This document shows positions 23,356 to 41,174 of a DNA stretch of 64,000 bases, in pieces. The notes beneath the pieces were generated by a model that was not told the origin of the DNA, did no database searches, and saw only the letters and a list, made by a program, of their open reading frames with translations. The position numbers and the translations under genes are program-made. The stretch's first letter is position 1. The number at the start of each line of letters is the position of its first letter. Source of the DNA: an uncultured Gemmatimonadales bacterium (GTDB lineage Bacteria; Gemmatimonadota; Gemmatimonadetes; Gemmatimonadales; GWC2-71-9); NCBI GenBank assembly GCA_963771275.1, contig CAVYSW010000011.1, positions 64,001 through 128,000 on the forward strand, in the 5' to 3' direction.

Positions 23356-23488
23356 CAACGTGCAACGTGCAGCGTATAGCGTGTAGTGTTGGCCGACAGC
23401 CGATGGCCGGCTCCCTTCCTCACTATTCACCTTCCACGTTTCACTTCCTTCGACATTCTACATTGGACATTGGGCATTGGGCATTCCC
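23356..23488. repeat. Four consecutive degenerate heptamer tandem arrays
   Basis: caacgtg-type x5, ggccgac-type x3, tcacttt-type x4, cattggg-type x5. Confidence 0.7.
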
Positions 23489-25326: not shown

Positions 25327-25441
25327 CGTTCGCGCTCCGCGATTGCCGCACCAAGGTACACCGTCGCCAAGGGTCCTCAAAGCGTGCTGCGCGGCTCGGG
25401 GGCGGGCCCCAGCCGCGCAGCACGTCTCACCCTATCCCTGA

Positions 25442-28400
25442 CTACTGCCGCGACTCATCCTCCTCAAACGGGAACCCGCTCTCCCCACCACCCCGGACGC
25501 GCTCGACGCGCAGCGTCTGCCGCATCGTCTCGCCACCGATCGTGAGCGTCACGAGGTAGTCACCAGTTTCGACGAGCGATCCCCCACCCCGGCGGCCCGG
25601 ATTGTACAGCCCGAACGACAGGCCCCCGAAACCGCCCCCGCCACCGCGCGCGCCCGGCGGCCGCAGCGCCCGCAAGATGTCCTGCATCTGAGCTTGGCCA
25701 GGCAGGGCCTCGGCCCCTTGCTCGCCGCCGGCCTGCGCGCCTTCACCTTGGGCCGCCGCGCGGCCAGCCGCGCCCGCCGAGCTCTCCCCGGGCCGCTCGA
25801 CGAAGCCCTGCGCCGCCCCGAACCTTCCGGCACCGCCCCCACCGCCCCCACCACCTCCGCCACCGAATCGGGCGGCCAGGGCCTGCATGTTGCCTGACTT
25901 GATGGACTCCCGCAGGCGATCGAGCATCGCCTGGTTCATCCCCGCCTTGACCAGCGAGTCGAACACCTGATCCACGCGGGCGATGAACTTGAGGCTGTCG
26001 CGCCGCTCAGCCGGGGACAGCGGCTTGGACGGCGCCGGCGCGCCGCGGAAGTCCCAGACCACCTGGTGGAGCCCGGTGCTGCCCGGCCCGTCGATCGTCC
26101 GCACCGTGTCACCCCGCGCGCCGGTCACCACGAGCTGCACGCGCGCGCGCGCCTCTCCCTTGGCCACGCGGTAGGCGATCTCCGCGCCGTACTGCGGGCT
26201 CGGCTCCGAGAACCACTTGTGGCCGTTCGACCCACCGCCCACCGGCACGTCCCCGTACTGGTAGGCCGTCCTGGGGGCGAACAGATACGCGGACTTGGCG
26301 AGCACCGCGTCCGTGAGCTGCTCCAGCGGCGCGATCCCGACGATCCAGATCGACCGGCCGTGCGTCGCCGCGATCAGCTCGTGGTCACGCGGGTGGATCT
26401 CGAGGTCGTGGACCGGAACCGTCGGCAGTCCCTCCATGAACCGCTGCCACGAGGCCCCGCGGTCGGTGGAGACGTAGGCCGCGACGTCGGTGCCGAGGAA
26501 CAGCAGATCCCGGTTGTACGGATCCTCGCGGATCACGTGCACGAAATCCACGCCGTCACTCGGCAGGTTGTTGGCGATCGAGCGGAACGTCTTGCCGAAG
26601 TCGTTGGTCACGTAGGCGTACGGCCGGAAGTCGTTCTCCCGGTGATTGTCGAACGTCACGTAGAAGGTCGCCGAGTCGAAGTGTGACGGCTCGACCCGGG
26701 TGACCCACGTCTTCGCGGGCACGCCGGGGAACCGTCCCGTGAGGCTCTCCCAGCTGCCGCCGTCGTCGCGCGTGAGCCACACGTTGCCGTCGTCGGTCCC
26801 CGCGAACAGCAGCCCGAACCGCAAGGGCGATTCCGCCAACGCCGTGATCGTGCTGTGCGTCTCCGCCCCGGTGGCATCGGGGGTAATGCCCCCCGTCGTC
26901 CTGGTGCTCACCCGGATGCGCATGGTGTCGCGCGTGGTCAGATCCGGCGAGATCGGCAGCAGGTTGTCGCCCCGCTTGGTGGACTTGAGCACGCGGTTGG
27001 CGCCGGCATAGAACACGTTGGGATCGTGCTGCGAGATGAGGAACGGCGTGTTCCAGTTCCAGCGCATGTCCAGCGTCGCCGAGTCGGCCCGCTGGCGTCG
27101 GCGCAGGTCGTCGAGCCGCCGCTGCAGCTCGCGCGACGGCCTCACCGCCGTGTCCGGCCAGTCGACCACGACCGAGTCCTCGTACTCGGTGTAGCGCGGC
27201 CGCCAGTCGGGCTTCTGCAGGCTGGTCCGCGCGCCGGTCGTGAGATCGACCCGCGCCATGCTGCCGCCCTGCGACTCGGCGTAGACGATGTTCGGATCGT
27301 TCGGGTCTTGCGCCGTGTAGAAGCCGTCTCCGCCATTCACGAAGAACCACATCAAGTTGTCGATCCCACCCCGTGCCCGGCGGCTTGGCCCGCACCACGA
27401 GCCGTTGTCCTGCAGGCCGCCGCACACCCGGTACGGGACGTCCATGTTGTAGCTCACGTGGTAGAACTGCCCGATCGCGATCGCGTTGAGGAAGTCGTAG
27501 TTCCCGCCGCGGTCCCACGTCTGCGCCACGCCGCCGTCGTTGCCGACGATGAAGTGCTGCGGATCGTTCGGGTCGATCCACATGGCGTGATGGTCCACGT
27601 GAATCCCGACCGTGGCATTGCGCGCCGTCTTGCCGCCGTCGTCGGAGAAGTTCACCGGGGTGGACGACCAGTACACCCGGTTCGCGTCCCTCGGGTCCAC
27701 CCGCACCTGCGAGTAGTAGAACGGCCGGACGTCGTTGCTGTTCATCTTGGTCCAGGTCGCCCCGCCGTCGGCGGACCGGTACAACCCCGAGAGCCGCTCC
27801 TTGCTGCCCTTGCCGCTGTCCGCCTCGGTCAGTGCATACACGACCTTGGGGTCACTCGGCGCGATCGCGATGCCGATCCGCCCCTTCATGGTCTCGGGGA
27901 ACCCGCCGCCCTTCACCTCGGACCACGTCGTCCCGCCGTCGGTGGTCTTCCACAGGCCACTGCCTGGACCGCCGCTGTTGAGGAAGTACGGGCCGCGCAC
28001 GCGCTCCCAGCTCGAGGCGAACAGCACGTTCGGGTTCGTGGGGTCCATCGCCAGGTCCACGAAGCCGGCCTTGTTGCTGATGAACTTGTTCAGCTGCCAG
28101 GTCTTGCCGCCGTCGGTCGTCTTGTAGAGCCCGCGCTCCGGATTCGGTCCCCACGCGTGCCCCAGCGCCGCCACGTAGACGATGTCGGGGTTCGTCGGAT
28201 GGACGATGATCCGCCCGATCTGCTGGGTCTCCCGCAGCCCCATGAACGTCCAGGTGAGGCCGCCATCGGTGGACTTGTAGATCCCGCCGCCCGGCGAAAT
28301 CGAGTTCCGCGAATCCTCTTCGCCGGTCCCGGCCCACACGATCATCGTGTCGCTCGGCGCGATCGCGATATCACCCATTGAGACGACGCGCTCGCGGTCG

Positions 28401-28660
28401 AACACGGGACGGAACGTCGTGCCCGCGTTGGTGGTCTTCCAGATCCCGCCGGCCACGGTCGCGACGAAGAACGTCTTGGACGGGCTGGGAATACCCTCGA
28501 TATCCGTGATCCGGCCGCCCATGTTCGCCGGGCCGACCGAGCGCCAGCGCAACGCGGACAAGGTGGCGGAATCGAGCGGAGTGGAGACTTGGGCCTGAAG
28601 CGACGAGACGCCAGCGACCAGAACGAGCGCTGGCACGAGCCATGGGGCGCGATGACGCAT
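25442..28660 (-). CDS. Secreted VPS10/sortilin-like BNR-repeat beta-propeller protein (putative glycosyl hydrolase)
   Basis: WRSVGPANMGGRI, many SxDGGxTW Asp-box repeats, GGLQDNGSW, ATHGRSIW. Confidence 0.88.
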   Translation of the reverse strand: MRHRAPWLVPALVLVAGVSSLQAQVSTPLDSATLSALRWRSVGPANMGGRITDIEGIPSPSKTFFVATVAGGIWKTTNAGTTFRPVFDRERVVSMGDIAIAPSDTMIVWAGTGEEDSRNSISPGGGIYKSTDGGLTWTFMGLRETQQIGRIIVHPTNPDIVYVAALGHAWGPNPERGLYKTTDGGKTWQLNKFISNKAGFVDLAMDPTNPNVLFASSWERVRGPYFLNSGGPGSGLWKTTDGGTTWSEVKGGGFPETMKGRIGIAIAPSDPKVVYALTEADSGKGSKERLSGLYRSADGGATWTKMNSNDVRPFYYSQVRVDPRDANRVYWSSTPVNFSDDGGKTARNATVGIHVDHHAMWIDPNDPQHFIVGNDGGVAQTWDRGGNYDFLNAIAIGQFYHVSYNMDVPYRVCGGLQDNGSWCGPSRRARGGIDNLMWFFVNGGDGFYTAQDPNDPNIVYAESQGGSMARVDLTTGARTSLQKPDWRPRYTEYEDSVVVDWPDTAVRPSRELQRRLDDLRRRQRADSATLDMRWNWNTPFLISQHDPNVFYAGANRVLKSTKRGDNLLPISPDLTTRDTMRIRVSTRTTGGITPDATGAETHSTITALAESPLRFGLLFAGTDDGNVWLTRDDGGSWESLTGRFPGVPAKTWVTRVEPSHFDSATFYVTFDNHRENDFRPYAYVTNDFGKTFRSIANNLPSDGVDFVHVIREDPYNRDLLFLGTDVAAYVSTDRGASWQRFMEGLPTVPVHDLEIHPRDHELIAATHGRSIWIVGIAPLEQLTDAVLAKSAYLFAPRTAYQYGDVPVGGGSNGHKWFSEPSPQYGAEIAYRVAKGEARARVQLVVTGARGDTVRTIDGPGSTGLHQVVWDFRGAPAPSKPLSPAERRDSLKFIARVDQVFDSLVKAGMNQAMLDRLRESIKSGNMQALAARFGGGGGGGGGGGAGRFGAAQGFVERPGESSAGAAGRAAAQGEGAQAGGEQGAEALPGQAQMQDILRALRPPGARGGGGGFGGLSFGLYNPGRRGGGSLVETGDYLVTLTIGGETMRQTLRVERVRGGGESGFPFEEDESRQ

Positions 28661-29110
28661 CACGACCTCGCGTGAGTGTGGAGTGTGGACCGCGAACGGC
28701 AGACCTGCACGAGCCGTTTACGCACGCGCGCGCAGCGGCGTTGAGCCGCGGCGACCCAATCTGCCCTGCCGGGCACCCGGTCGCCACCCGGGATCGCGGG
28801 CCCCAGCCGCCCGCCCCCCTCACGATGACGCCGGATCCCACGACTTTCTGGTCGCCAACCTACCTGAGTCATCCCGTCGCAGCTGCCACGTTTCGCTCCA
28901 GGTGGCTCGAATCAGGCCACTTGCCGTGCTGACCAGTGCATCGCTAATGCGAACTACCACAAGCACTTACGACATCACCCCAAGGGGAATGGATCGTGCG
29001 GAGTTCGGTGCGGCGCCCGCTGGGAACGAGACGAAGCCGACTCGGCGCGCCGGCGGATTGGGCTCCGGCTCACAGAACGGATCCGTGAATTCCGTACCTT
29101 GGCGTCCCCT

Positions 29111-30100
29111 ATGCAACTGCCTCATGCCGCCACCGCGAGCGCGCTGCCGCGGCCGCCACGGCCCGCGCTTCGCGCCGTGAGCACGTCGGGCCGCGCAGCG
29201 TCGGTCCCGGCCACCACCGCCTCGGCGACCCCTTCGCAGATCGCCCGTCGCGCGGTCACCGTCGGCGCGGTGCTGGTCTGGCTGGCCGTGGCCGGCACGC
29301 TGCTCGTCTGGGGCTTCCCGTACTACATCACGCCGCTCCAGGCCCGCGCCTACTCGACCTACCACGAGCTGCTCAAGCCCTCCGGCCTGGTGGGCCAGGG
29401 GTACGGCGTGATCGGCACGCTGATGATGGTGGTCGGCGTGACCGGCTACTCGTTGCGCCGGCGCGTCCGGTGGCTCAACCGGGCCGGCAAGCTGAAGACC
29501 TGGCTCAGCGTGCACATCTTCCTCTGCACCCTCGGCCCGTTCCTCATCGTGCTCCATACGACGCTCAAGTTCGGCGGCATCGTGTCGATCGCGTTCTGGA
29601 GCATGATCGCCGTCGTGACGAGCGGCGTGTTCGGCCGGTACGTGTACGTCCGGATCCCCAAGACGCTGAACGGCCAGTTTCTCTCGCTCCAGAGCATCGA
29701 GGAGCAGCGCGGCACCATGCTCCGCACCATCCAGGAGCGGTCCGGGCTTTCCACGGCGGAGATCGACGGGATCCTCAGGGTCGCCAAGCGGCCTGCGCCC
29801 CGCGGCTTCGCCGGCGCGCTGTTCCAGTCCCTCTGGTACGACCTGACGGCGGGCGCGCACGGCCGGAAGATCCACCGGGCACTCGCGGCCAAGGGCGTCC
29901 CACCCAAGGCGCGGGCCGTGGCGGCGACGCTGTTCCTCGACGAGGCCAACCTCGAGCATCAGGTCGCGCTGCTGACGCCGTTCCAGCGCCTGTTCAAGTA
30001 CTGGCACCTGTTCCACATGCCACTCGCCCTCGTGATGCTCGTGATCGTGCTGATCCACGTGTCCGTCGCCGTCCTGCTCGGCTACACGTGGCTGTTCTGA
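29111..30100 (+). CDS. Inner-membrane protein with membrane His residues (putative cytochrome b-like)
   Basis: About 5-6 hydrophobic segments; WLSVHIF, IVLHTT, YWHLFHMP, LIHV. First gene of the cytochrome operon. Confidence 0.7.
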   Translation: MQLPHAATASALPRPPRPALRAVSTSGRAASVPATTASATPSQIARRAVTVGAVLVWLAVAGTLLVWGFPYYITPLQARAYSTYHELLKPSGLVGQGYGVIGTLMMVVGVTGYSLRRRVRWLNRAGKLKTWLSVHIFLCTLGPFLIVLHTTLKFGGIVSIAFWSMIAVVTSGVFGRYVYVRIPKTLNGQFLSLQSIEEQRGTMLRTIQERSGLSTAEIDGILRVAKRPAPRGFAGALFQSLWYDLTAGAHGRKIHRALAAKGVPPKARAVAATLFLDEANLEHQVALLTPFQRLFKYWHLFHMPLALVMLVIVLIHVSVAVLLGYTWLF

Positions 30101-30108
30101 CCGGCTCG

Positions 30109-31824
30109 GTGCATCGCCCTCCGGCGACCCGACTCGCCCTCCTCATGCTGCTCGCCTTCGCGCCCACGGCACGCGCCCAGCTGCTCTCCCCCGGGAAGCT
30201 CATCGCCTCGCACGGCGACCTCGACGGCGTGCGCCACTGCACGAAGTGCCACCAGCTGGGGGAGCGCGGCGTCGCCGACGCGAAGTGCCTCGACTGCCAT
30301 AAGCCGATCGCGCAGCGCATCGCCCAGAAGCAGGGCTTTCACGCCACGATCGGCAGCCGCACCTGCGGCGAGTGCCACAAGGACCACTTCGGCACCGACT
30401 TCGACGCGGTCCATTTCGACACGGCGGGCTTCGACCACCGCGCCAAGACCGGGTTCGACCTGGCTGGGGGGCACGCGAGCACCGCCTGCCGGGACTGCCA
30501 CCGGCCGGAGTACGTGGTGGAGACCGCGGTGCGGCAGGAGGCCGGCGAGCATGGTCGCCTGGCAACGACATATCTCGGACTCGCCACGACGTGCGTCGGC
30601 TGTCACCGGAACGACGATCCCCACGCCGGCCAGTTCCCCAATCAGGGCTGCGAGGACTGCCATGCCGAGGTGGACTGGAAGAAGCCGGACCGGTTCGACC
30701 ATGCCAAGACGCGCTACCCGCTGCACGGCAAGCACGTGGACGTGGCCTGCCGCGACTGCCACACCCCGATCCCAGGCCAGAAAGGGGCGCTCAAGCTCAC
30801 GGGCCTCGCGTTCGGCACCTGTGCGGCCTGTCACCAGAAGGACGATCCGCACGCAGGCCAGTTCGCCGCACGGCGGTGCGACGAGTGCCACGCCGAGACG
30901 GGCTGGAAGAGCCTCGGTCGCTTCGACCACTCGGCCACCAAGTACCCGCTCACGGGGCGTCACCTGGATGTCGAGTGCCAGAAGTGCCACACCCCACTGC
31001 CGGGACGCAGAGGAGCCATGCGGCTCACCGGCCTCGAGTTCGCGACCTGCCTGGCCTGCCACAAGAACGACGACCCGCACGGGGGGCGTCTCGGCACCGG
31101 GTGCAACGACTGCCACACGACCGCCGGCTGGCGCGCCACGGGCGGGGCCAGCTTCGAGCGCAAGTTCGATCACGCCCGCACGCGGTTCGCGCTGCACGGC
31201 AAGCACGCCACGGTCGAGTGCGCCGCGTGCCACGATCCGGCACGGCCGCGCGCCAACGACATTGCGCTGGCGTTCGTTGCGGCGACCCGCACACGCGCCT
31301 ACCCGGTACCGGTGGCGGACCAGTGCACCTCGTGCCACACGGACTACCACGCCGGCGCGTTCGCCAAGAGCCCCGGCGGCCTCGCATGCACGAACTGCCA
31401 CGGCGAGGACGCCTGGCTCCCCACGGACTACGACATCGCGCGCCACAACCGCGACGCCCGTTACGAGCTGACGGGCGCGCACCGCGCCGCGCCCTGCGTC
31501 GCCTGCCACAAGAGCGCGGCCCTCGGGCAGCAGGCGCTCGTGTTCCGCATCGCCCAGCAGGACTGCCTCGCGTGCCACCGGTCCAACGACCCCCACGGCG
31601 ACCAGTTCACGGGCCGGACGTGCGACTCGTGCCACGACACCCGCGCGTTCCGCATCGCCGCGTTCGACCACGCCAAGACGCGGTACCCGCTGGACGGGGC
31701 GCACCGCAACGTCGCGTGCGCCTCGTGCCACCCGTCGGTTCCGGGGCCGGATGGCAAACCCATGCGACGCTATCGGCCCCTCGGCATGACCTGCCGGGAC
31801 TGCCACGAGGGAGATCGCTCATGA
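30109..31824 (+). CDS. Multiheme cytochrome c, 20 CxxCH motifs
   Basis: Signal peptide ending ARAQ, SPGKLIASH start, 20 CxxCH counted by hand. GTG start at 30109 (alternative ATG 30145). Confidence 0.93.
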   Translation: MHRPPATRLALLMLLAFAPTARAQLLSPGKLIASHGDLDGVRHCTKCHQLGERGVADAKCLDCHKPIAQRIAQKQGFHATIGSRTCGECHKDHFGTDFDAVHFDTAGFDHRAKTGFDLAGGHASTACRDCHRPEYVVETAVRQEAGEHGRLATTYLGLATTCVGCHRNDDPHAGQFPNQGCEDCHAEVDWKKPDRFDHAKTRYPLHGKHVDVACRDCHTPIPGQKGALKLTGLAFGTCAACHQKDDPHAGQFAARRCDECHAETGWKSLGRFDHSATKYPLTGRHLDVECQKCHTPLPGRRGAMRLTGLEFATCLACHKNDDPHGGRLGTGCNDCHTTAGWRATGGASFERKFDHARTRFALHGKHATVECAACHDPARPRANDIALAFVAATRTRAYPVPVADQCTSCHTDYHAGAFAKSPGGLACTNCHGEDAWLPTDYDIARHNRDARYELTGAHRAAPCVACHKSAALGQQALVFRIAQQDCLACHRSNDPHGDQFTGRTCDSCHDTRAFRIAAFDHAKTRYPLDGAHRNVACASCHPSVPGPDGKPMRRYRPLGMTCRDCHEGDRS

Positions 31825-33176
31825 TCCGCCTCCGCAGCGCTTTCCTGCTGGCCCTCGCGGCCGGCCTCGCGCATCCCGCGGCGGCGCAGCAGAACCCGCA
31901 CGGCACGCTCCCCGCCGGGCTGGACTGCAGCGACTGCCACACGTCGAAGAGCTGGAAGCCCGACCCCGCGACCGTGAAGTTCGACCACAACCGGCAGACC
32001 GGCTTCAAGCTGGTCGGCCGGCACCGCGACGCGGCGTGCCGCTCGTGCCATCTGTCGGTGAAGTTCGACGAGGCGACGCTCAAGGGCGCGGATTGCGCCA
32101 CGTGCCACGCCGACGTGCACCGCGGGGCGTACACCGAGCGGTGCGAGAGCTGCCACACGACCGTGAGCTTCGCGGACGTGCCCGGGCTGCAGGTCCACGC
32201 GCGGACCACGTTCCCGCTGACCGGGGCACACGCGCAGATCGCCTGCCGCGCCTGTCACGTGGACGACCGGGACGGCGCGTTCACGCCGCTCGATCCCCAG
32301 TGCATCTCGTGCCACCGCGCGGACTACGAGCGCGCCAGCCCGGTGAACCACGTGGCGGCGAACTACCCGACCGACTGCACGCGCTGCCACGTCACGGTCG
32401 CCTGGCCGGCGCACGTGAACTTCGATCACGTCTCCCTGTCGAACGGGTTCCGGCTGATCGGCGCGCACGCGCGCATCCGCTGCACCAGCTGCCACGCCAC
32501 GGCGGACATGACCCCGCTGTTCCCGGGAGCCAAGGACCAGGACTGCATGACCTGTCACCAGCCGGACTACAGCCGGGCACATCCGGGGAACAGCTTCCCG
32601 CAGACCTGCCTCAGCTGCCATACGATGGAAACGTGGGCCGGTGCGACCTTCGACCACCCCCTCGTGGCGAACGGGTTCCGGCTGCAGGGAGCACATGCGT
32701 CGCTGGCCTGTCAGGCCTGCCACGCGGCGGACATGACGCCGCTGTTCCACCCGTCGAACGACCAGGATTGCATCACCTGCCACCAGGCGAACTACCAGGC
32801 GGCCCCGAACCACGTGACGGGGAACTACCCGCAGGCCTGTCTGCAATGCCACACCCAGATCACCTGGCAAGGGGCGACGTTCGCCCACACGCCGTCCATG
32901 ACCGACTGCGTTTCGTGCCATCACGCCGATTTCGTCGCGGCGACCTCCCCGGTGAACCACACGACGCAGGGCATCATCGAGGCCGCCTGCAGCCAGTGCC
33001 ACGACAACAACGCCGGCACCTGGGCGCAAACCTCATATGTCCATGGCGACTGCTACAGCAGCACGACCAACCGGGCGCATCAGAACGCGCGTTGCTCGCA
33101 GTGTCACACCAGCGGGTATCCCGCGGCCACATGCACGGCCTGCCACCAGAACAGGTCTTCATGCCGAGACTCATGA
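31821..33176 (+). CDS. Multiheme cytochrome c, 17 CxxCH motifs
   Basis: Signal peptide ending AAAQ, 17 CxxCH counted by hand; ATGA overlap with the previous gene. Confidence 0.93.
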   Translation: MIRLRSAFLLALAAGLAHPAAAQQNPHGTLPAGLDCSDCHTSKSWKPDPATVKFDHNRQTGFKLVGRHRDAACRSCHLSVKFDEATLKGADCATCHADVHRGAYTERCESCHTTVSFADVPGLQVHARTTFPLTGAHAQIACRACHVDDRDGAFTPLDPQCISCHRADYERASPVNHVAANYPTDCTRCHVTVAWPAHVNFDHVSLSNGFRLIGAHARIRCTSCHATADMTPLFPGAKDQDCMTCHQPDYSRAHPGNSFPQTCLSCHTMETWAGATFDHPLVANGFRLQGAHASLACQACHAADMTPLFHPSNDQDCITCHQANYQAAPNHVTGNYPQACLQCHTQITWQGATFAHTPSMTDCVSCHHADFVAATSPVNHTTQGIIEAACSQCHDNNAGTWAQTSYVHGDCYSSTTNRAHQNARCSQCHTSGYPAATCTACHQNRSSCRDS

Positions 33177-33261: not shown

Positions 33262-34842
33262 ATGACGGCCCGAATCTCCGGGGTGGTCGGCGCCACCCTG
33301 CTCGCGCTGGCGACGGTGGCCTCCCCGCGCGCCGCCGCGCAGCAGGGCCGCGTCGCCGTGGTGGTGGACTACATCGCCGGTGCCGACATCTACCTCGCGG
33401 CGGGGAGCGAGCAGGGTCTCGCCTCCAATGACACGCTCCTCGTCTACGAGGCCCCGGAGGGCGACCAGGTGGGGCGGTTTTTCGTGGTGAGCGCCACGGC
33501 GACCCGGGCCGTCGTCGAGTTCATCGGCACCGCATTCCCGGTCACGCGCGGCAAGACGCTCTACGTCCAGCGCACGTCGGCGCACGCGGCCGAGCCGGCC
33601 CCGCTCGTCACCGAAGGGCCGGCGCCCGCCCGGCGGCCGGACGGGCGGTCCGCCTCGCTGCACGGGCGGCTCGCGCTCGAGGCCGACGGCTTCCAGAGCA
33701 CGACGCTGTGGCAAAGCAACCAGCTCGAGTCGGAGACGCGCCAGTTCGCCACCCCGTCGCTCGGCCTCCGGGCGGTGGCGACGGACCTCCCAGGCGGGTT
33801 CAGCCTGAACACCAACCTCCGAGCCCAGTATCGCTACAGCAATCCGGCCGTGATCAACCCGGCGTGGGCCGTTCAGGTGTATCAAGCAAGCCTGGCCAAG
33901 TCGTTCACCGGCTTCCCGCTGTACGTCGAGCTCGGCCGGTTCAGCAATCAGTACACCAACTTCAGCGGCCAATGGGACGGCCTGATGATGCGGCTCGGCG
34001 GCCGGCGGGGGTTGGGTGGCGGCTTCGCCGCCGGGTTCGAGCCCGCGAGCGGCGACCAGGGGCTCTCCACCACGCTGCCCAAGTACTCGGGGTTCCTCAC
34101 GGTCGACGCCGGCGGCGGGCCGCTGCGCTACTCCACTTACCTCTCGGCAACCCAGGTGCGCCCGCGGAACGGCCTCCTGGTGCACAGCTACCTCGGGTGG
34201 TCGCAGTACCTGCGCGCGCGGCGGTTCCGGCTGAGCAGTGACGCGCAGGTCGACCGCGACCCCGAGACCAGCAAGTGGGTGGTGACGCGGTTCAACGCCA
34301 CCGCGTCCATCCCGCTGGCGCGCGGCCTGGAGATCCACAGCCGCCTGTCCCGGTTCCAGCCCTACGCGTTCTGGCAGACGACGAACCTGATTTCCTACCG
34401 GCGCGACCAGGGCAACGTGGGGCTGTTCTACTTCGGCTCCGGGGGGAGCATCGGCCTCGATGTCACCGCGAACCGGTTCGCCGCGAGCGACACGACCGCG
34501 CGCGAGACGAGTTACACGTACTCAGCGTCATTCAGTCTGCTGCGGACGCCCATCCTCGGACTCGACTGGAGCGCCTCGGGGAGCTACTGGACCCAGAGCG
34601 GGAGCAAGTCGCTCTACGCCACCGCGGGGCTCGCCCGGAGCTTCGGGCGGGTGCATTCGCGCGCGTCCTACCAGCTCTACCGCTCCCAGAGCGCCACGCT
34701 GACGTCGGTGAGCCACAGTGTGGACGCCGGCCTGTCGTTCCCGCTGGCGCGAAGCCTCTACGCGACGTTCCAGGGACGGATGCAGCGCGGCGGGGACCTC
34801 CATACCAGCGGACTGTATTTCGGTCTGTGGACGAGCTTCTGA
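33262..34842 (+). CDS. Outer-membrane beta-barrel (porin-like) protein
   Basis: Signal peptide; many amphipathic Tyr/Ser/Thr/Gly-rich strands; C-terminal LYFGLWTSF with terminal Phe (BAM-type signal). Confidence 0.78.
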   Translation: MTARISGVVGATLLALATVASPRAAAQQGRVAVVVDYIAGADIYLAAGSEQGLASNDTLLVYEAPEGDQVGRFFVVSATATRAVVEFIGTAFPVTRGKTLYVQRTSAHAAEPAPLVTEGPAPARRPDGRSASLHGRLALEADGFQSTTLWQSNQLESETRQFATPSLGLRAVATDLPGGFSLNTNLRAQYRYSNPAVINPAWAVQVYQASLAKSFTGFPLYVELGRFSNQYTNFSGQWDGLMMRLGGRRGLGGGFAAGFEPASGDQGLSTTLPKYSGFLTVDAGGGPLRYSTYLSATQVRPRNGLLVHSYLGWSQYLRARRFRLSSDAQVDRDPETSKWVVTRFNATASIPLARGLEIHSRLSRFQPYAFWQTTNLISYRRDQGNVGLFYFGSGGSIGLDVTANRFAASDTTARETSYTYSASFSLLRTPILGLDWSASGSYWTQSGSKSLYATAGLARSFGRVHSRASYQLYRSQSATLTSVSHSVDAGLSFPLARSLYATFQGRMQRGGDLHTSGLYFGLWTSF

Positions 34843-34843
34843 C

Positions 34844-36151
34844 ATGTCGGACACGCTGCTGATCGGGGCGGTCGGCGCCGTACTCGTGCTCCTCGTCATG
34901 GTGCCGTTCTACCGCCGGCAGCGGAACCTCGAGCGCACGACCGCCGAGGCGGAGCAGCTCGCCAAGCGCTACGGGCTGAACGAGCCCCTCTCGCTCCACC
35001 CGGTGGTGGACGTCGGCGGGTGCATCGGGACGGGCAACTGCGTATCGGTCTGCCCCGAGGGCGACGTCTTGGGGTTCCGCCACGGCCAGGCCTTCGTCGT
35101 GAGCCCCGCCCGCTGCATCGGGCACGGCCTGTGCGAGCGGGCCTGCCCCACCGAGGCGATCCAGCTGGTGTTCGGATCCGCCAAGCGGGGCGTGGAGATT
35201 CCGCGGGTCAAGCAGAACTTCGAGAGCAACGTCCCCGGCCTCTACATCATCGGGGAGCTCGGCGGCATGGGGCTGATCCGCAACGCGTTCGAGCAGGGTC
35301 GTCAGTGCATCGAGGGCATCGCGCGCGAGGCCAAGGGGTCGGGCGACGCGCTCGACGTCCTGATCGTGGGCTGCGGGCCGGCAGGCCTGTCCGCGTCGTT
35401 GCACTGCCTGCACCACAGCCTCCGCTTCGCGACGCTCGAAAAGGAGGACATCGGCGGGACGGTGCGCTACTACCCGCGGAAGAAGATCGTGATGACCAGC
35501 ACCGTGAAGGTGCCGGGCTACGGGAAGCTCGACTTCCGCGAGATCAGCAAGGAGGAGCTGATCGACATCTGGGAGGACATCGTCGAGCGCACCCAGCTCA
35601 AGGTGAACATCGGGGAGACGGTCACCGGCGTGGCGCGGGGATCGGACGGGTGCTTCACGGTCACCAGCGGCACCAGGACCTACAAGACGCGGCGGGTGGT
35701 GCTGGCGATCGGGCGGCGGGGCGTGCCCCGCAAGCTCGGAGTCCCGGGGGAGGAGCTTCCCAAGGTGATCTACTCGCTGCACGAGCCCGAGGCGTATCAG
35801 AAGGACCGCATCCTGGTGGTCGGCGGCGGCGACTCGGCCGTGGAGGCCGCGCTCGCGCTGTCCGACCAGCCGGGCAACGAGGTGAAGATGTCCTACCGCG
35901 GCGAGCAGTTCAGCCGCATCAAGCCGGGCAACCTCCAGCGGGTGGAAGAGGCCATCGCGCGGCGCCGCGTCGAGGTGTTGTGGCAGACGAACGTGGTCGA
36001 GATCACGCCCAAGACGGTGGTCTGCAAGAACGGCGGCGAGCCGCTGGCGCTCCCCAACGACGTCGTCGCGGTGTTCGCCGGCGGCGAGCTGCCGCTCAAG
36101 TTCCTCGAGAGCTGCGGCGTCCAGGTGGACCGGAAGTTCGGCGAGCCCTGA
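34844..36151 (+). CDS. Membrane-anchored Fe-S/FAD NAD(P)H oxidoreductase (thioredoxin reductase-like)
   Basis: N-terminal TM; CIGTGNCVSVCP and CIGHGLCERACP; IVGCGPAG; VVGGGDSAVEAA; SYRGEQFSR. Confidence 0.85.
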   Translation: MSDTLLIGAVGAVLVLLVMVPFYRRQRNLERTTAEAEQLAKRYGLNEPLSLHPVVDVGGCIGTGNCVSVCPEGDVLGFRHGQAFVVSPARCIGHGLCERACPTEAIQLVFGSAKRGVEIPRVKQNFESNVPGLYIIGELGGMGLIRNAFEQGRQCIEGIAREAKGSGDALDVLIVGCGPAGLSASLHCLHHSLRFATLEKEDIGGTVRYYPRKKIVMTSTVKVPGYGKLDFREISKEELIDIWEDIVERTQLKVNIGETVTGVARGSDGCFTVTSGTRTYKTRRVVLAIGRRGVPRKLGVPGEELPKVIYSLHEPEAYQKDRILVVGGGDSAVEAALALSDQPGNEVKMSYRGEQFSRIKPGNLQRVEEAIARRRVEVLWQTNVVEITPKTVVCKNGGEPLALPNDVVAVFAGGELPLKFLESCGVQVDRKFGEP

Positions 36152-36158
36152 CCACGCG

Positions 36159-37973
36159 CTACCGGCGCGCCACCAGCAGGATCCCCTCGTAGCTCGAGAT
36201 CGTCAGGCTGTCGGCCCCGCCCTGCCCGGCGATCATGCGCAGGTAGAACGCCGCCCGGCCGGCCGGCGTCTCCCGCTCGAGATGGAGCAGATCCGCAGGC
36301 AGCCCGTCGGGACCGGACCCGCCGTGCCCCGTCGCCCGCAGCGTCTGGATCAAGCTGTCGAGCGGCAGGGCCACCAGCGGTCTCGCGTCGTCGTAGACCA
36401 CGAGCGCCAGCCCGCCGCGCGCCGGGGCTACCCGGAAGCCGGCGCCCGGGGTGAGCGAGTCGAAGCGCCCGCGCGTGACGGAGAACACCGCGTCGTAGCC
36501 GGCGACCGGGATCGCGACGTTCTTGAGGTCCGACCCATAGCGGAACTCCATGTTGGGCCCCGGCATCGCCCAGCGGCTCACGTAGCCCACGTTGAGCGCC
36601 CGGGCGATGAGCTCCGCCCGCGCCTCGACGTCTCCCGATGCGGCCGTCCCGTGCGCGACGGTGTCGATCCGCCCGAGCGAGTCGCCAAACCACGGCGCGA
36701 TCGCCCCGGTGCCATGGGTTTCCACGAGGTACCGCAGGACGGCAGAGATCTCGCGCCGGTCGGCTTCGGACGGCTGGGCCTCCGCCCGGTGAGCCGTTCC
36801 CGCCACCATCACGCCGTTCCGCTCGAGCAGGGCCGCCAGCCGCCCCACCTGGCTCGACTCGGACACCCGGTAGGCACTCCACGGGCCGAACAGCGTGAGC
36901 ACGGCGACGGCACAGAGCGACGCGGGTATCACCTTGATGTTCCGGGACCGCGTGAGCAGCGCGTGCACCGCGATGCCGGCGAGCCAGAGCGACAGCACGC
37001 TGAGGAAGTAGCGTGGCTCCGTGATGCCGTACTGCTGGACGCGCTGCCAGATGGCAACCCACAGCATCGCGATCGCCGGCAGCAGGGCCAGGTAGAATCC
37101 GCGCGCGTAAACCGCCACCCAGCGATTCGCGGCCTCGCCCGCCACGGGATGGACCAGCAGCAGCGAGAAGATCCCCACCGCCGCGACGCTCGAGACCAGC
37201 CACCCGATCCAGCCGCTCGGCCAGTTCCAGGTCACCACGACCTTGACCAGGTAGACGGTGAGAATCACGAGGTAGACGGCGACGATCGGGAGCAGGGCGT
37301 ACTGCGTGAACGCCTTGATGCCGGCGGGGTAGCCGTGCGACGCGTCGAGCGCCCCAAAGTCGCGCGGCACGCCACCCAGGAAGAACCACGTGTTGAACAC
37401 GAAGCCGAGCACGAACCACAGGCGCAGGTAGCCGGTCCCCGGCACGCCCACGCCGAACAGCTTGTCGATCGCCGCGAGCGCGATCGCCGCACCGGCGTAC
37501 AGCACGACCGTGTACAGCGCGCTCACGATCGCGCGCTCCAGTAGCGTGCGGTTGTATTGCCAGAATCCGTTGCGCTCGGCCCGGCCCACGTACGGCAGGA
37601 ACGCGACCAGCAGGTGGCAGGCCGCGCTCGCCTGCACGTAGCGCCCGAACCGGACGGGCTCCGACCAGTGACCCCAGGCCACCGCGAACCACGCCAGCAG
37701 CCCGATCGCCGCCAGGCTCACGACCCCGTTCGGCACGCGCCCCCACGCGCGGCGCTCGCCGGCGAGCGCCAGGGCCACGAACAGCGGGATGCCGAGCGTC
37801 GCCACGGCCAGCAGCCGGACGTTCTGCTCGGGGTCGCCGAGCTCGTCGGGGATCCGGATCGCGAAGACCGCCGACACGGTCGCGGCCAGCAGCACGAGCG
37901 GAAAGCGCAGCAGCGCCTCGCGCGCCCCCCGCACGATCGGCTCCAGCGTCGGCAGCACACCACGCAGTGTCAT
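36159..37973 (-). CDS. Polytopic membrane protein, DUF4153-like
   Basis: FWQYN, YALLPIV.VY..IL..Y, RVQQYGITEPRY, GPWSA..VSESSQ..RL. Confidence 0.7.
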   Translation of the reverse strand: MTLRGVLPTLEPIVRGAREALLRFPLVLLAATVSAVFAIRIPDELGDPEQNVRLLAVATLGIPLFVALALAGERRAWGRVPNGVVSLAAIGLLAWFAVAWGHWSEPVRFGRYVQASAACHLLVAFLPYVGRAERNGFWQYNRTLLERAIVSALYTVVLYAGAAIALAAIDKLFGVGVPGTGYLRLWFVLGFVFNTWFFLGGVPRDFGALDASHGYPAGIKAFTQYALLPIVAVYLVILTVYLVKVVVTWNWPSGWIGWLVSSVAAVGIFSLLLVHPVAGEAANRWVAVYARGFYLALLPAIAMLWVAIWQRVQQYGITEPRYFLSVLSLWLAGIAVHALLTRSRNIKVIPASLCAVAVLTLFGPWSAYRVSESSQVGRLAALLERNGVMVAGTAHRAEAQPSEADRREISAVLRYLVETHGTGAIAPWFGDSLGRIDTVAHGTAASGDVEARAELIARALNVGYVSRWAMPGPNMEFRYGSDLKNVAIPVAGYDAVFSVTRGRFDSLTPGAGFRVAPARGGLALVVYDDARPLVALPLDSLIQTLRATGHGGSGPDGLPADLLHLERETPAGRAAFYLRMIAGQGGADSLTISSYEGILLVARR

Positions 37974-38007
37974 CGTTCCCCTCCGCTCCTCCCGCGTCGC
38001 GCCGTCA

Positions 38008-39108
38008 TCACGTCCCGCCGAGCACCTTCCCACCGAGCGTCACCGGCTGCCGGCGCGTACCCCAGGCCCCGGGGGGCCCGTCGAACACGCCGGCGCATTC
38101 CGCTCGGCAGGCCACGCACCGCCCGTCGGCCGTGAGCGCCCATGCGTCGATCGTGTACCCGTCCCGCACGATCAACGGCGCGCCGCAGCCGTGGCAGTAC
38201 GTCGTGCCGCCCTCCAGGTCCCGCACATTCCCCGTGTAGACGTAGCGCGCGCCGTTCGCGCGGGCGATCTGCCGCGCCCGGCGTAGCGTCGCGGGCGGCG
38301 TGGGCGGCGCGTCGAACATCTTCCAGTCGGGATGGAACGCGGTGAAGTGGAGCGGCACGTCCGGGCCCAGCTCCTCGACCACCCAGCGGCTCAGCCCCTC
38401 CAGCTCCTCGTCCGTGTCGTTCTCACCGGGGATCACCAGGTTCGTGATCTCGAGCCAGACGTCGGTCTCGTGCCGGATGTAGCGCAGCGTCTCCAGCACC
38501 GGCTCGAGCCGCGCCGCGCACAGCTCGTGGTAGAACCGGTCGGTGAACGCCTTGAGATCGACGTTCGCCGCATCCATGTGACGGTAGAACTCGACCCGCG
38601 GCTCCGCGCACATGTAGCCCGCCGTCACCGCCACGGCACGGATCCCCCGCTCGTGGCAGGCCTGGGCCACGTCGATCGCGTACTCGTGGAAGATCACCGG
38701 ATCGTTGTACGTGAACGCGACGCTGCGGCAGCCGAGCCGCTCGGCGGCCGCCGCGATCCCCTCGGGCGAGGCACTGTCGGCCAGGGTGTCGATCTCGCGC
38801 GACTTGCTGATGTCCCAGTTCTGGCAGAAGCGGCAGGCGAGGTTGCAGCCCGCCGTGCCGAACGACAGGATCGGCGTCCCGGGCAGGAAGTGGTTGAGCG
38901 GTTTCTTCTCGACGGGATCCACACAGAACCCGCTCGAGCGCCCGTAGGTGGTGAGCACCACCTCGCCGCCCTCGCAGGCCCGTACGAAGCACATGCCCCG
39001 CTGCCCGTCGTGCAGCTTGCAGAACCGGGGGCAGAGATCGCACTGGACCCGGCCGCCCTCCAGCCGATGCCAGTACTTCGTCGGGACTACGGTGCCGGAG
39101 ATGGTCAT
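38008..39108 (-). CDS. amrS: AmmeMemoRadiSam system radical SAM enzyme
   Basis: VQCDLCPRFC, VDPVEKKPLNHFLPG, GCNLACRFCQNWDISK, FTYNDP, FHPDWKM, YVYTGNV. Confidence 0.92.
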   Translation of the reverse strand: MTISGTVVPTKYWHRLEGGRVQCDLCPRFCKLHDGQRGMCFVRACEGGEVVLTTYGRSSGFCVDPVEKKPLNHFLPGTPILSFGTAGCNLACRFCQNWDISKSREIDTLADSASPEGIAAAAERLGCRSVAFTYNDPVIFHEYAIDVAQACHERGIRAVAVTAGYMCAEPRVEFYRHMDAANVDLKAFTDRFYHELCAARLEPVLETLRYIRHETDVWLEITNLVIPGENDTDEELEGLSRWVVEELGPDVPLHFTAFHPDWKMFDAPPTPPATLRRARQIARANGARYVYTGNVRDLEGGTTYCHGCGAPLIVRDGYTIDAWALTADGRCVACRAECAGVFDGPPGAWGTRRQPVTLGGKVLGGT

Positions 39109-39338: not shown

Positions 39339-39414
39339 CCTCTCTGCCCCTCTGCCCCTCTCCTCTGCCGCTTCTACCGCTCCTGCCGCTCCTGCCGCTA
39401 CTGCCGCTACTGCC
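39339..39414. repeat. Short tandem repeats: 8-mer pyrimidine-rich units followed by 9-mer CTGCCGCTH x5
   Basis: ctgccgctt ctaccgctc ctgccgctc ctgccgcta ctgccgcta (39365-39409). Confidence 0.75.
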
Positions 39415-40981
39415 CGAAGACAATCCCCTGCGCCAGCGGCAGGTCCGTGCTCCAGTTGACCGTGTTGGTTTGGCGGCGCATGTAGACCTTCCATGCATCC
39501 GAGCCGGACTCGCGCCCGCCACCCGTCTCCTTCTCGCCGCCGAATGCGCCGCCGATCTCGGCGCCACTGGTCCCGATGTTGACGTTGGCGATGCCGCAGT
39601 CCGAGCCCCGCGCCGCCAGGAACGCCTCGGCCTCACGCACGTGCTCGGTGAAGATCGCCGAGGAGAGCCCCTGCGGCACCCCGTTGTGCAGCGCGATCGC
39701 CTGCCCGATCTCGGCCACCGCCTGCTGCGGCGTCGCGGCTTGCCTGCCGTAGGTGATGATGTAGAGGATCGGCGCGAACGTCTCCTCCTGGACGATCCCG
39801 TACTCGTTCTTCGCCGCCGCGATGCACGGCCGCACGTAGTGCCCGCCGGGATACTGCGGCCCGCTCAGCGTCTCGCCGCCGTAGAGCACCTCCCCACCCT
39901 CCTCCTTGAGCCGCTTCAGGGCGTGCTGCATGTCCCGCACGGCGTCCGGGGTCACCAGCGGGCCCATCAGCGTGCCCGTCTTCCGCGGATCGCCGATCGG
40001 AACCCCCTCGTACGCCTTCACCAGCCGGCGCACCAGCTCGTCCCTCACCGAGGCGTGCACGATGATGCGGCGCGTCGTGGTGCAGCGCTGGCCCGCCGTG
40101 CCCACCGCCCCGAACAGGATCGCCCGGAGCGCCAGGTCCAGATTGGCGCTTGGGCTGACGATGATGGCGTTGTTGCCGCCCAGCTCGAGAATCGTCCGGC
40201 CGAGTCGCTTGCCCACCACCTCGCCCACCCGGTACCCCATCTGCGAGCTGCCGGTGAACGAGATCAACGGGATGCGGCGGTCGTGCAGGATCTTCTCCCC
40301 CACCGTCGAGCCCTTGCCGATCACCAGGGAGAAGATGGCCGGGTCCACACCGTTCTCGACGCACACCTGCTGCGCGATCTTCGTGGTGGCGATCGCGGTG
40401 AGCGGCGTCTTGCTCGAGGGCTTCCACAGCACGGCGTCGCCGCACGCGCACGCGAGCGCCGTGTTCCAGCTCCACACGGCCGTGGGGAAGTTGAACGACG
40501 TGATCACGCCGACCACGCCGAGCGGGTGCCACTGCTCGAACATGCGGTGGTCCGGCCGCTCGGACTGGATCGTGAGGCCGTAGAGCTGCCGCGAGAGCCC
40601 CACCGCGAAGTCGCAGATGTCGATCATCTCCTGCACCTCGCCCTCACCCTCGGGCAGGATCTTCCCCATCTCGAGCGTCACGAGCGCACCCAGCTCGTGC
40701 TTCATCTCGCGCAGCCGGTTCCCCAGCTGGCGGATCAGGTCGCCGCGCCTGGGCGCCGGCACGTTGCGCCAGGTGAGAAACGCCTGGTGCGCCCGCTGGA
40801 GGATCTCCTCGTACTCGGCCTCGGTCACCTGCCTGACCGCCGCGATGCGCGAGCCATCGATCGGCGTGATGACGTCGAGCACCGGGCCCGAGCCGATCCA
40901 GTCGCCGCAGAATCCGCCGAGGTTCTGGTCCTCGATGCCGAGGGCCGCGAGCGCGTCGGGCCGTGCTGCCGTGGTCGTCAT
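39407..40981 (-). CDS. Aldehyde dehydrogenase, ALDH7/piperideine-6-carboxylate dehydrogenase type
   Basis: GEVQEMIDICDFAVGLSRQL, ITSFNFP, LELGGNNA, GTAGQRCTT, NIGTSGAEIGGAFGGEKETGGGRESGSD. Confidence 0.93.
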   Translation of the reverse strand: MTTTAARPDALAALGIEDQNLGGFCGDWIGSGPVLDVITPIDGSRIAAVRQVTEAEYEEILQRAHQAFLTWRNVPAPRRGDLIRQLGNRLREMKHELGALVTLEMGKILPEGEGEVQEMIDICDFAVGLSRQLYGLTIQSERPDHRMFEQWHPLGVVGVITSFNFPTAVWSWNTALACACGDAVLWKPSSKTPLTAIATTKIAQQVCVENGVDPAIFSLVIGKGSTVGEKILHDRRIPLISFTGSSQMGYRVGEVVGKRLGRTILELGGNNAIIVSPSANLDLALRAILFGAVGTAGQRCTTTRRIIVHASVRDELVRRLVKAYEGVPIGDPRKTGTLMGPLVTPDAVRDMQHALKRLKEEGGEVLYGGETLSGPQYPGGHYVRPCIAAAKNEYGIVQEETFAPILYIITYGRQAATPQQAVAEIGQAIALHNGVPQGLSSAIFTEHVREAEAFLAARGSDCGIANVNIGTSGAEIGGAFGGEKETGGGRESGSDAWKVYMRRQTNTVNWSTDLPLAQGIVFGQ

Positions 40982-41174
40982 AGGCCTGCGTCCATCTCAA
41001 GGTGGTGTAGGCCGGGGCGCCGCGCGTTTCGTGGTGGCGCCTCTGTCCGGGAAAGTTAGCCAGCCGCCGCGCCGCCGCACACGGCGGCCGCAGGTCGGTC
41101 GATCTGGCCAAGGTGGGTACACCGAGCCCAGAATTGAGGTACGCCGAGTTTCTCCCGTGCCCATTGGAGGACCC

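Follow-up and report, generated by a model that had tools for sequence, protein, structure and literature searches.

What does a flavoprotein with the fold of thioredoxin reductase (TrxR) do at the end of an operon that encodes two multihaem cytochromes c, an inner-membrane protein (IMP) and a candidate outer-membrane barrel? The question is posed by the gene at 34844..36151 of a stretch of 64,000 nucleotides, hereafter the window, from an uncultured Gemmatimonadales bacterium (positions 64,001 to 128,000 of contig CAVYSW010000011.1, assembly GCA_963771275.1). The gene joins two known kinds of protein, the TrxR-fold ferredoxin reductase and the component of a PCC3 conduit, and it probably encodes one half, the NAD(P)H dehydrogenase on the cytoplasmic side, of a split transmembrane electron relay that is organized like NOX and feeds a PCC3-type conduit. 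Its product is built in the order transmembrane (TM) helix, ferredoxin domain, permuted tail for flavin adenine dinucleotide (FAD), and FAD/NAD(P)H core, with the following parts:

34844..36151, plus strand: the gene itself, an open reading frame (ORF) of 435 codons plus stop, encoding 435 amino acids
34853..34912, plus strand: N-terminal hydrophobic helix, residues 4-23 by sequence, followed by RRQR (helix 2-42 in the AlphaFold2 model)
35000..35173, plus strand: two-cluster ferredoxin domain, residues 53-110 (Pfam Fer4_10)
35021..35056, plus strand: ferredoxin motif 1, C60-x2-T63-x2-C66-x3-C70-P, with CIGTGNC at residues 60-66
35114..35149, plus strand: ferredoxin motif 2, C91-x2-H94-x2-C97-x3-C101-P, with CIGHGLC at residues 91-97
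35177..35344, plus strand: putative permuted FAD-binding tail, residues 112-167, with strand 133-136, G137-E138-L-G-G141 and helix 145-161
35345..36148, plus strand: FAD/NAD(P)H core of two Rossmann domains, residues 168-435
35366..35383, plus strand: GCGPAG, inside IVGCGPAG (35363..35386, residues 174-181)
35762..35785, plus strand: KVIYSLHE, residues 307-314, the equivalent of the TrxR CxxC
35816..35839, plus strand: VVGGGDSA, in the core
35891..35923, plus strand: SYRGEQFSRIK, in the core

The flavoprotein part is circularly permuted. The original prediction, made from the sequence of the window, had noticed that the C-terminal FAD motif of TrxR lies ahead of the GxGxxG and that the protein ends where this motif would normally follow, and both observations hold: the tail motif ESNVPGLYIIGE occupies residues 127-138, 47 residues ahead of the GxGxxG (IVGCGPAG, residues 174-181), and the last residue of the chain matches approximately residue 270 of the 323-328 residues of YpdA. 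The conclusion drawn from them, a permuted fold of the TrxR/YpdA type, was borne out by profile alignments, shuffles and sequence matches to solved structures. The best solved-structure match by sequence is Staphylococcus aureus Bdr/YpdA (7a7b_A, E 3e-29), in which residues 171-430 of the query align to residues 5-266 of the chain, and HMMER reported a further, weak stretch in which residues 123-140 fall on residues 277-294 of the same chain. When the 40 relatives that form the family alignment (33-62% identity to the query) were used as a profile, the same extra stretch was recovered in register on all five chains printed, namely two YpdA, a Thermus TrxR-like protein, a Chlorobaculum ferredoxin-NADP reductase (FNR) and a Sulfolobus TrxR, each match being insignificant alone. 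The AlphaFold2 model computed from the 40-sequence alignment (pLDDT 92.7, pTM 0.86) had three Bdr/YpdA entries as its top Foldseek matches (E ~1e-22). The co-linear match ends about 55 residues short of the end of every canonical relative, with no residues of the model remaining, and residues 133-136 and 145-161 of the model form a strand and a helix, as in the strand-G(D/E)-helix arrangement of canonical tails.

The family segment corresponding to residues 108-168 was excised and aligned with hhalign to 14 TrxB proteins and to 8 canonical, non-permuted YpdA-like proteins, all from Gemmatimonadota, with 200 column shuffles as the null for each comparison. Against the YpdA-like proteins the segment fell on columns 291-349 of 358 (probability 93.6, P 2.1e-7) with a score of 46.0, which none of the 200 shuffles reached (mean 12.4, standard deviation 2.2, maximum 23.2), and the core, residues 169-435, fell on columns 23-296 of the same 358 (P 6.6e-47). 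Against the TrxB proteins, ESNVPGLYIIGEL aligned to TNIEGVFAAGDI, the TxxxGvFAAGD motif, with a score of 29.2 (P 2e-4), again beyond all 200 shuffles (mean 13.0, standard deviation 2.4, maximum 22.4). Since the segment maps to the canonical tail and the core to the canonical front, the protein reads as tail followed by head and core, residues 112-167 being the equivalent of YpdA residues ~277-323 and of the TxxxGvFAAGD motif of TrxB plus the helix that follows it. G137, E138 and G141 of the tail motif are invariant in the 40 sequences. Of 271 family proteins fetched, 241 match a loose regular expression for the motif ahead of their first GxGxxG (median distance 50 residues) and none match it after; 29 matched neither arrangement and one had no GxGxxG. 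None of the 271 carried the motif at both ends, as a tandem-duplicate intermediate would. A search of the full-text literature found no published description of a circularly permuted flavoprotein of the TrxR/YpdA type.

Profile databases agree with this architecture. Pfam recognizes a Fer4 dicluster domain at residues 53-110 and Pyr_redox_3 at residues 173-431 (profile positions 1-284 of 305), and the protein has the TrxR-type two-Rossmann FAD/NADPH fold that characterizes YpdA/Bdr. The best NCBIfam model, YpdA (TIGR04018), covers residues 171-431 on profile positions 1-264 of 316, short of a full co-linear match, and scores 160.4 bits (154.9 bits in the search of the genome) against a cut-off of 339.9.

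The flavoprotein also lacks the catalytic thiols of its relatives. KVIYSLHE does stand at the TrxR CxxC position, as originally proposed, the CATC of TrxB aligning to S-(gap)-L-H, and a redox-active dithiol is absent, the only Cys residues invariant in the 40 sequences being the six of the ferredoxin domain. The Cys of the G-x-G-P-C-G loop is the candidate active site of YpdA/Bdr. This loop reads GPCG in all eight canonical Gemmatimonadota YpdA-like proteins and GPAG here, with A180 kept in at least 90% of the 40 family members. The low-Mr thioredoxin reductase model TIGR01292 gives 69.4 bits against a cut-off of 343.45, with no CxxC in the NADPH domain. The absence of both the CxxC and the YpdA-type Cys excludes the protein from the thioredoxin reductases as well as from the thiol reductases of the YpdA type. 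The second Rossmann motif, GGGDSA, is conserved, and R352, in the SYRGEQFSRIK stretch, is present in at least 90% of the 40 sequences. TrxR carries HRRxxxR, and by analogy the R352 stretch suggests NADPH as the substrate. Canonical YpdA-like proteins with GPCG occur elsewhere in the phylum (genomes G016, G036, G076, G047, G084, G010, G034 and G099; loci L117-L128), and 37 of 101 sampled Gemmatimonadota genomes contain only co-linear YpdA-like matches, spanning approximately positions 166-438 of the family profile; a profile search of the window's own genome found no such protein. Their presence hints at a thiol metabolism of the bacillithiol type in part of the Gemmatimonadota.

The ferredoxin domain passes the Pfam gathering cut-offs of both Fer4_10 (34.0 bits against 25.5) and Fer4_7 (33.3 against 27), and it has six Cys, not eight: the second Cys of either motif is replaced, by T63 and H94, respectively, in agreement with the original reading of both motifs. 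All six Cys are invariant in the 40 sequences and H94 is found in at least 90% of them. Ligand positions were counted in the 130 of 150 representatives (clusters at 50% identity) in which both motifs could be found. The position in the second motif was His in 115, Val in 4, Asp in 3, Tyr in 2, Ile in 2, and Thr, Ala, Phe and Cys in one each, and that in the first motif was Cys in 65, Ser in 56, Thr in 4, Ala in 3, and Ile and Val in one each. With 121 close homologues included (n=249), the first-motif counts became Thr 94, Cys 65, Ser 60, Ile 21, Ala 7 and Val 2. The His is thus the hallmark of the family, while the Thr is a local variant of the Gemmatimonadota type, half of the representatives having Cys. 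In the single-cluster ferredoxins of Child et al. 2018, this place is taken by His, Thr, Ser, Asn, Tyr or Phe; all were isolated as [3Fe-4S] proteins, and the His and Asn forms had more positive potentials (PMC6237146). By analogy, two [3Fe-4S] clusters may be present here, or a [4Fe-4S] cluster ligated by His, which would fit the original prediction of [3Fe-4S] or His/Thr-ligated clusters of shifted potential.

Frame analysis and translation show that the gene is the last of an operon of five, all on the plus strand, in which it is preceded by:

29111..30100, plus strand: IMP, 329 amino acids, with two W-x3-H-x13-H motifs and SGVFG; start taken from the plot of third-position GC (GC3) by frame
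30109..31824, plus strand: multihaem cytochrome c with 20 CxxCH and a signal-peptide-like N-terminus (Pfam Cytochrome_C7, Cytochrom_c3_2 and MtrC/MtrF II-IV domain); the start is uncertain between GTG 30088, GTG 30109 and ATG 30145
31821..33176, plus strand: multihaem cytochrome c with 17 CxxCH (Pfam), its ATG overlapping the preceding stop (ATGA)
33262..34842, plus strand: outer-membrane barrel (porin) candidate, 526 amino acids, with a signal peptide and the ending ...GLWTSF

These genes correspond by description to PCC3 as set out by He et al. 2017, that is, a porin, two multihaem cytochromes, one extracellular and one periplasmic (the latter with a median of 21 haem sites), and an IMP of ~300 amino acids with five helices, SGxxG on TM4 and two WX3HX13H motifs on TM3 and TM5, which those authors likened to ferric reductase/NOX (PMC5566968). 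All four described parts are present in the window's operon, the barrel as a candidate. Its IMP has 329 residues, both motifs, SGVFG and, in its AlphaFold2 model (pLDDT 87.8), helices compatible with five TM segments plus a helical insert between TM4 and TM5, and its two cytochromes carry 20 and 17 CxxCH sites. No clear match to a solved relative was found for the IMP model. Among 36 IMP homologues W131, H135, H149, S171, G172, G175, R176, Y179, W298, H299, H302 and H316 are invariant, so that H135/H149 and H302/H316 make up two conserved His pairs, 13 residues apart, on TM3 and TM5. Pfam returned only a weak DUF4405 match below its cut-off and NCBIfam nothing; Ferric_reduct (PF01794) did not match the IMP at E <= 0.1, nor the fused proteins P0139, P0148 and P0162 at E <= 1e-5. 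The IMP insert, approximately residues 185-290 and thus ~100 residues long, varies in length by clade; by the predicted topology it would be cytoplasmic and could be a docking surface for the ferredoxin domain. The barrel candidate matched nothing in Pfam or NCBIfam and is homologous (hhalign probability 99.9, E 8e-33, 492 columns) to a family of ~540-residue neighbours present in 27 of 80 related loci, most printed members of which end in ...RF or ...NF.

Those 80 loci, retrieved from species-representative genomes by means of the family alignment, span Gemmatimonadota, several classes of Proteobacteria, Bacteroidota, Ignavibacteria, Acidobacteriota, Myxococcota, Planctomycetota, Nitrospirae, Calditrichaeota and others, and they tie the flavoprotein to the IMP and the cytochromes. 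By tblastn, the IMP and the 20-haem cytochrome were each detected in 70 of the 80, the 17-haem one in 69 and the barrel in 4. A stricter clustering of ORFs, applied to 67 loci, placed an IMP in 50 (within 400 bp in 34) and a cytochrome with at least six CxxCH in 56. A cytochrome of ~20 haems is typically accompanied by a second of variable size, with 6 to 68 sites, and both WX3HX13H motifs are present in 48 of 55 neighbouring IMPs. Co-occurrence was scored in one set of 101 Gemmatimonadota genomes, which are related and hence not independent, a full-length gene being defined by E <= 1e-130. The gene was found in 22 genomes and the IMP in 21, both together in 21 of the 22 and always on the same contig, and the IMP in none of the other 79. 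Fusion ties the two proteins further: by its profile, the IMP is fused to the flavoprotein in 45 of the 150 representatives, 39 in the order gene-IMP (~735-770 amino acids) and six in the order IMP-gene, with both haem motifs present in 42 of the 45, and 11 of the 150 carry 3 to 34 CxxCH sites of their own. None of the 121 close homologues is fused to an IMP. A complex prediction for IMP residues 40-329 with the flavoprotein gave scores of 0.23 and 0.14 (mark 0.32) and was not used as evidence.

The N-terminal helix is conserved throughout the 40-sequence alignment and, by the positive-inside rule and both fusion orders, would be an N-out/C-in membrane anchor. A single topology fits both fusion orders if the IMP has its N-terminus inside, five TM segments and its C-terminus outside, with the helix of the flavoprotein passing from out to in as a sixth. 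NOX consists of six helices followed by a dehydrogenase. As the IMP-gene fusions likewise have six helices and then a dehydrogenase, with the His pairs for haem on the third and fifth, the two genes can be read as a split, NOX-like unit. In the proposed relay, the single helix would anchor the flavoprotein in the inner membrane with its ferredoxin and flavin domains in the cytoplasm. Electrons would pass from NAD(P)H to the FAD of the permuted YpdA/TrxR-fold domain, from there to two Fe-S clusters with three Cys ligands each, and on to the inner and then the outer b haem of the His-paired IMP. The b haems would reduce the ~20-haem periplasmic cytochrome, which in turn would pass electrons to the second multihaem cytochrome, held in the outer-membrane barrel and reaching the cell surface. 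The original prediction of a permuted enzyme resembling ferredoxin:NADP reductase was therefore right in its architecture and incomplete in its function, having overlooked the membrane helix, the operon and the fusions, which together make one half of a transmembrane relay a better reading than a soluble FNR-like enzyme.

Several points weigh against the relay as drawn. The place of residues 112-167 in the FAD site is a prediction from sequence, and the nucleotide specificity and the type of the clusters are read from motifs. No IMP lies within 10 kb in 10 of the 80 loci, several of which are short contigs; three genes separate the IMP from the flavoprotein gene in the window; and one of the 22 genomes with the gene (G006) has no detected IMP. 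PCC3 has moreover been proposed to serve Fe(II) oxidation, with the IMP reducing quinone (PMC5566968; PMC10734462), which implies the opposite direction of flow and a different partner at the inner membrane.

Outward flow is favoured because it would run downhill from NAD(P)H, because the membrane potential would help it and because a three-Cys cluster of raised potential suits a step before the b haems; a His-type [3Fe-4S] cluster in particular would suit the step between flavin and b haems. It is unlikely, if far from negligible, that the same complex works inward, with electrons from Fe(II), a mineral or a cathode entering through the cytochromes and the IMP and the flavoprotein reducing NAD(P)+ or another cytoplasmic acceptor. 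Flavoproteins of the TrxR type are reversible in principle, and sulfur-oxidizing symbionts and Methylococcaceae are among the 80 loci. PCC3 also occurs in iron oxidizers, for which it has been proposed as an uptake route (PMC5566968; PMC10734462), and the inner-membrane gene of one PCC3 copy is described as rising during iron oxidation by Sideroxydans CL21 (10.1101/2025.02.27.639646). Moving electrons from the outer to the inner side would, however, oppose the membrane potential, as expected from established bioenergetics; NAD(P)+, at approximately -320 mV, lies far below the Fe(II)/Fe(III) couples at neutral pH; the raised potential of a His-type [3Fe-4S] cluster (PMC6237146) would make the final steps steeply uphill; and the conserved gene set encodes no energy-coupling subunit.

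Two further explanations would take the flavoprotein out of the main electron path altogether. It is quite improbable that the protein is a redox sensor or regulator rather than a bulk carrier, signalling the state of NAD(P)H or oxygen in the cytoplasm to the conduit, or gating the latter. Lability is common in clusters with non-Cys positions, FHA or TPR domains are joined to some family members, and two-component regulator genes stand in 10 and 9 of the 80 loci, all of which would suit such a role; nevertheless, everything that an NAD(P)H flavoprotein needs for catalysis is conserved, the fusions to the IMP (45/150) and to multihaem cytochromes (11/150) have the look of an electron path, and Pfam recognizes no DNA-binding or signalling output domain in the 435-residue form. 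A stand-alone thiol/disulfide reductase like YpdA or TrxR, or a soluble FNR, that sits beside the cytochromes only by chance can be set aside as very improbable. It would account for the best sequence and structure matches, which are to YpdA/Bdr and TrxR-type FNR, and for the 'thioredoxin reductase' of some source annotations, but not for the absence of both the CxxC and the YpdA-type Cys, for scores far under the curated cut-offs (160 bits where 340 are required and 69 where 343 are), for a conserved membrane anchor, or for an IMP that is found in 21 of the 22 genomes with the gene and in 0 of 79 other genomes and is fused in 45 of 150 representatives.

The NAD(P)H relay can be set beside several kinds of known system. 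YpdA/Bdr (TIGR04018; 7A7B, 7APR and 7A76) is the closest relative in both sequence and fold and likewise has no CxxC in the NADPH domain; in the window's protein, the last ~55 residues, those of the FAD tail, have moved ahead of the GxGxxG, the Cys of GPCG has become Ala, a membrane helix and a two-cluster ferredoxin domain have been added, and the family cut-off is more than twice the score reached. In FNRs of the TrxR type, a C-terminal extension packs on the flavin. These enzymes (YumC/FNR, 3LZW and 6GAS; Chlorobaculum, 3AB1; Thermus, 2ZBW) are soluble and co-linear and act on a separate ferredoxin, whereas here the ferredoxin is fused, the chain permuted and the protein anchored in the membrane. 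The CXX?XXC(X)nCP ferredoxins described from actinobacterial P450 systems likewise have His, Thr or Ser in place of the second Cys (PMC6237146; PMC9868604), but are soluble, single-cluster proteins of ~60-100 residues, in contrast to the two motifs, the fused reductase and the membrane anchor found here.

NOX/ferric reductase and the MsrQ system would, if the relay holds, share its plan of cytoplasmic NAD(P)H and flavin, His-paired b haem or haems and an acceptor on the outer face. The likeness, an analogy, is one of working and not of membership: the dehydrogenase is of the TrxR/YpdA type rather than the FNR type, two Fe-S clusters are interposed, two genes usually make up the unit, with the dehydrogenase following the membrane domain only in the six IMP-gene fusions, and the acceptor is a multihaem cytochrome in place of O2 or MsrP. 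MsrQ is the nearest working precedent among bacterial two-part systems, its electrons being described as coming from an NADH oxidoreductase in the cytosol and going to periplasmic MsrP (PMC12525009).

The published account of PCC3 contains no flavoprotein, whereas the window's operon adds a fifth component of the NAD(P)H type that is closely tied to the IMP and in many cases part of the same protein. In later papers, PCC3 is a set of four genes (PMC10734462; 10.1101/2025.02.27.639646). The terms FAD, 4Fe-4S, thioredoxin reductase and pyridine nucleotide have zero occurrences in the main text and eight text supplements of He et al. 2017 (PMC5566968). Supplementary Table 6 of that study lists unnamed 'other redox proteins' of 412-425 and 608-805 amino acids beside pairs of cytochrome and IMP (PMC5566968), and these may belong to the present family. 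In Ferrigenium straubiae, an FHA-nonahaem cytochrome, a 5-TM protein and a '[4Fe-4S] cluster-containing protein' are reported as adjacent, a trio whose function its authors state cannot be inferred (10.64898/2026.01.22.701106); by description, these are the same kinds of neighbours as those of the present family, which includes fusions with FHA and cytochrome domains. A literature search for a flavoprotein partner of a PCC3-type IMP found none beyond passing mentions, and the portions covered of a preprint on modular multihaem cytochromes (10.1101/2025.05.29.656830) contain nothing relevant to one.

In genomes, clusters of the PCC3 type commonly serve as markers of extracellular electron transfer and iron oxidation. 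He et al. 2017, in their discussion of the IMP, guess that it talks to quinone (PMC5566968); the link to metabolism at the inner membrane has been guessed in print to be a quinone-reactive cytochrome b. Co-occurrence with the IMP and frequent fusion to it point instead to NAD(P)H as the cytoplasmic partner, which, if true, changes how PCC3 markers are to be read in metagenomes. A broader proposal, which we put forward tentatively and regard as close to evenly balanced, is that PCC3-type conduits, which occur in many bacterial phyla, are not wired to the quinone pool at all but connect cytoplasmic NAD(P)H with the cell surface independently of quinone. A six-helix, two-haem unit, split over two genes and with the N-terminal helix of the flavoprotein as the sixth, would be driven by a permuted TrxR-fold flavoprotein through two three-Cys clusters, a bacterial 'NOX with a wire' that discharges reducing power onto extracellular acceptors. 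In any case, the family offers a large natural set of proteins with a permuted TrxR/YpdA fold and a conserved His in place of a Cys ligand, and hence a test case for how permutation and ligand swaps tune the relay from flavin to Fe-S cluster.

The family is large, at least 8000 scored candidates having passed the homologue search, and at E <= 1e-30 it comprises 818 cluster representatives, some of them probably canonical YpdA-like proteins. Public annotation names its members 'NAD(P)-binding domain-containing protein' or 'thioredoxin reductase'. The ATG of the window's gene at 34844 lies 1 nucleotide past the TGA of the upstream barrel gene. The third-position GC is 0.94-0.98 along 34844..36151, the GC3 signal in the frame plot switches frame at approximately 34850, and the close homologues listed are mostly 434-443 amino acids long with ~100% query coverage; the ATG was retained as the start because of this switch and the lengths and coverage of the homologues. 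An upstream GTG at 34718 overlaps the preceding gene, is contradicted by the GC3 switch and the homologue lengths, and was rejected. Frames encoding 680-695 amino acids in two other genomes (G003:C125:6634-7569 and G012:C25:30720-31658) match the family profile only from approximately position 115; they cover the permuted tail and the core without the ferredoxin domain and may represent a further architecture of the permuted flavoprotein.

Other genes noted around the operon lie on the opposite strand:

23488..25431, minus strand: gamma-glutamyltranspeptidase, upstream of the operon
25442..28717, minus strand: Sortilin/BNR-repeat protein, 1091 amino acids, upstream of the operon
36159..38033, minus strand: DUF4153 membrane protein, 624 amino acids, convergent and 8 nucleotides past the stop of the flavoprotein gene (Pfam E 1.4e-24)
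39407..40996, minus strand: aldehyde dehydrogenase family protein (Pfam E 3.7e-126)

A homologue of the DUF4153 protein occurs in 0 of the 80 related loci, and the protein is therefore not part of the system. Fusions to FHA domains are found among P0198, P0224, P0254, P0126 and P0145, of which P0224 and P0254 also carry cytochrome domains, and other members have TPR repeats; judged by their domains, these fusions suggest control by protein phosphorylation, or scaffolding, in some lineages. Genes for Ankyrin/Sel1-repeat proteins lie near the cluster in 19 loci (L003, L011 and other proteobacterial loci), those for large TPR proteins in 14, and the cytochrome-maturation genes CcmF and CcmH in 9 and 8 loci, respectively.

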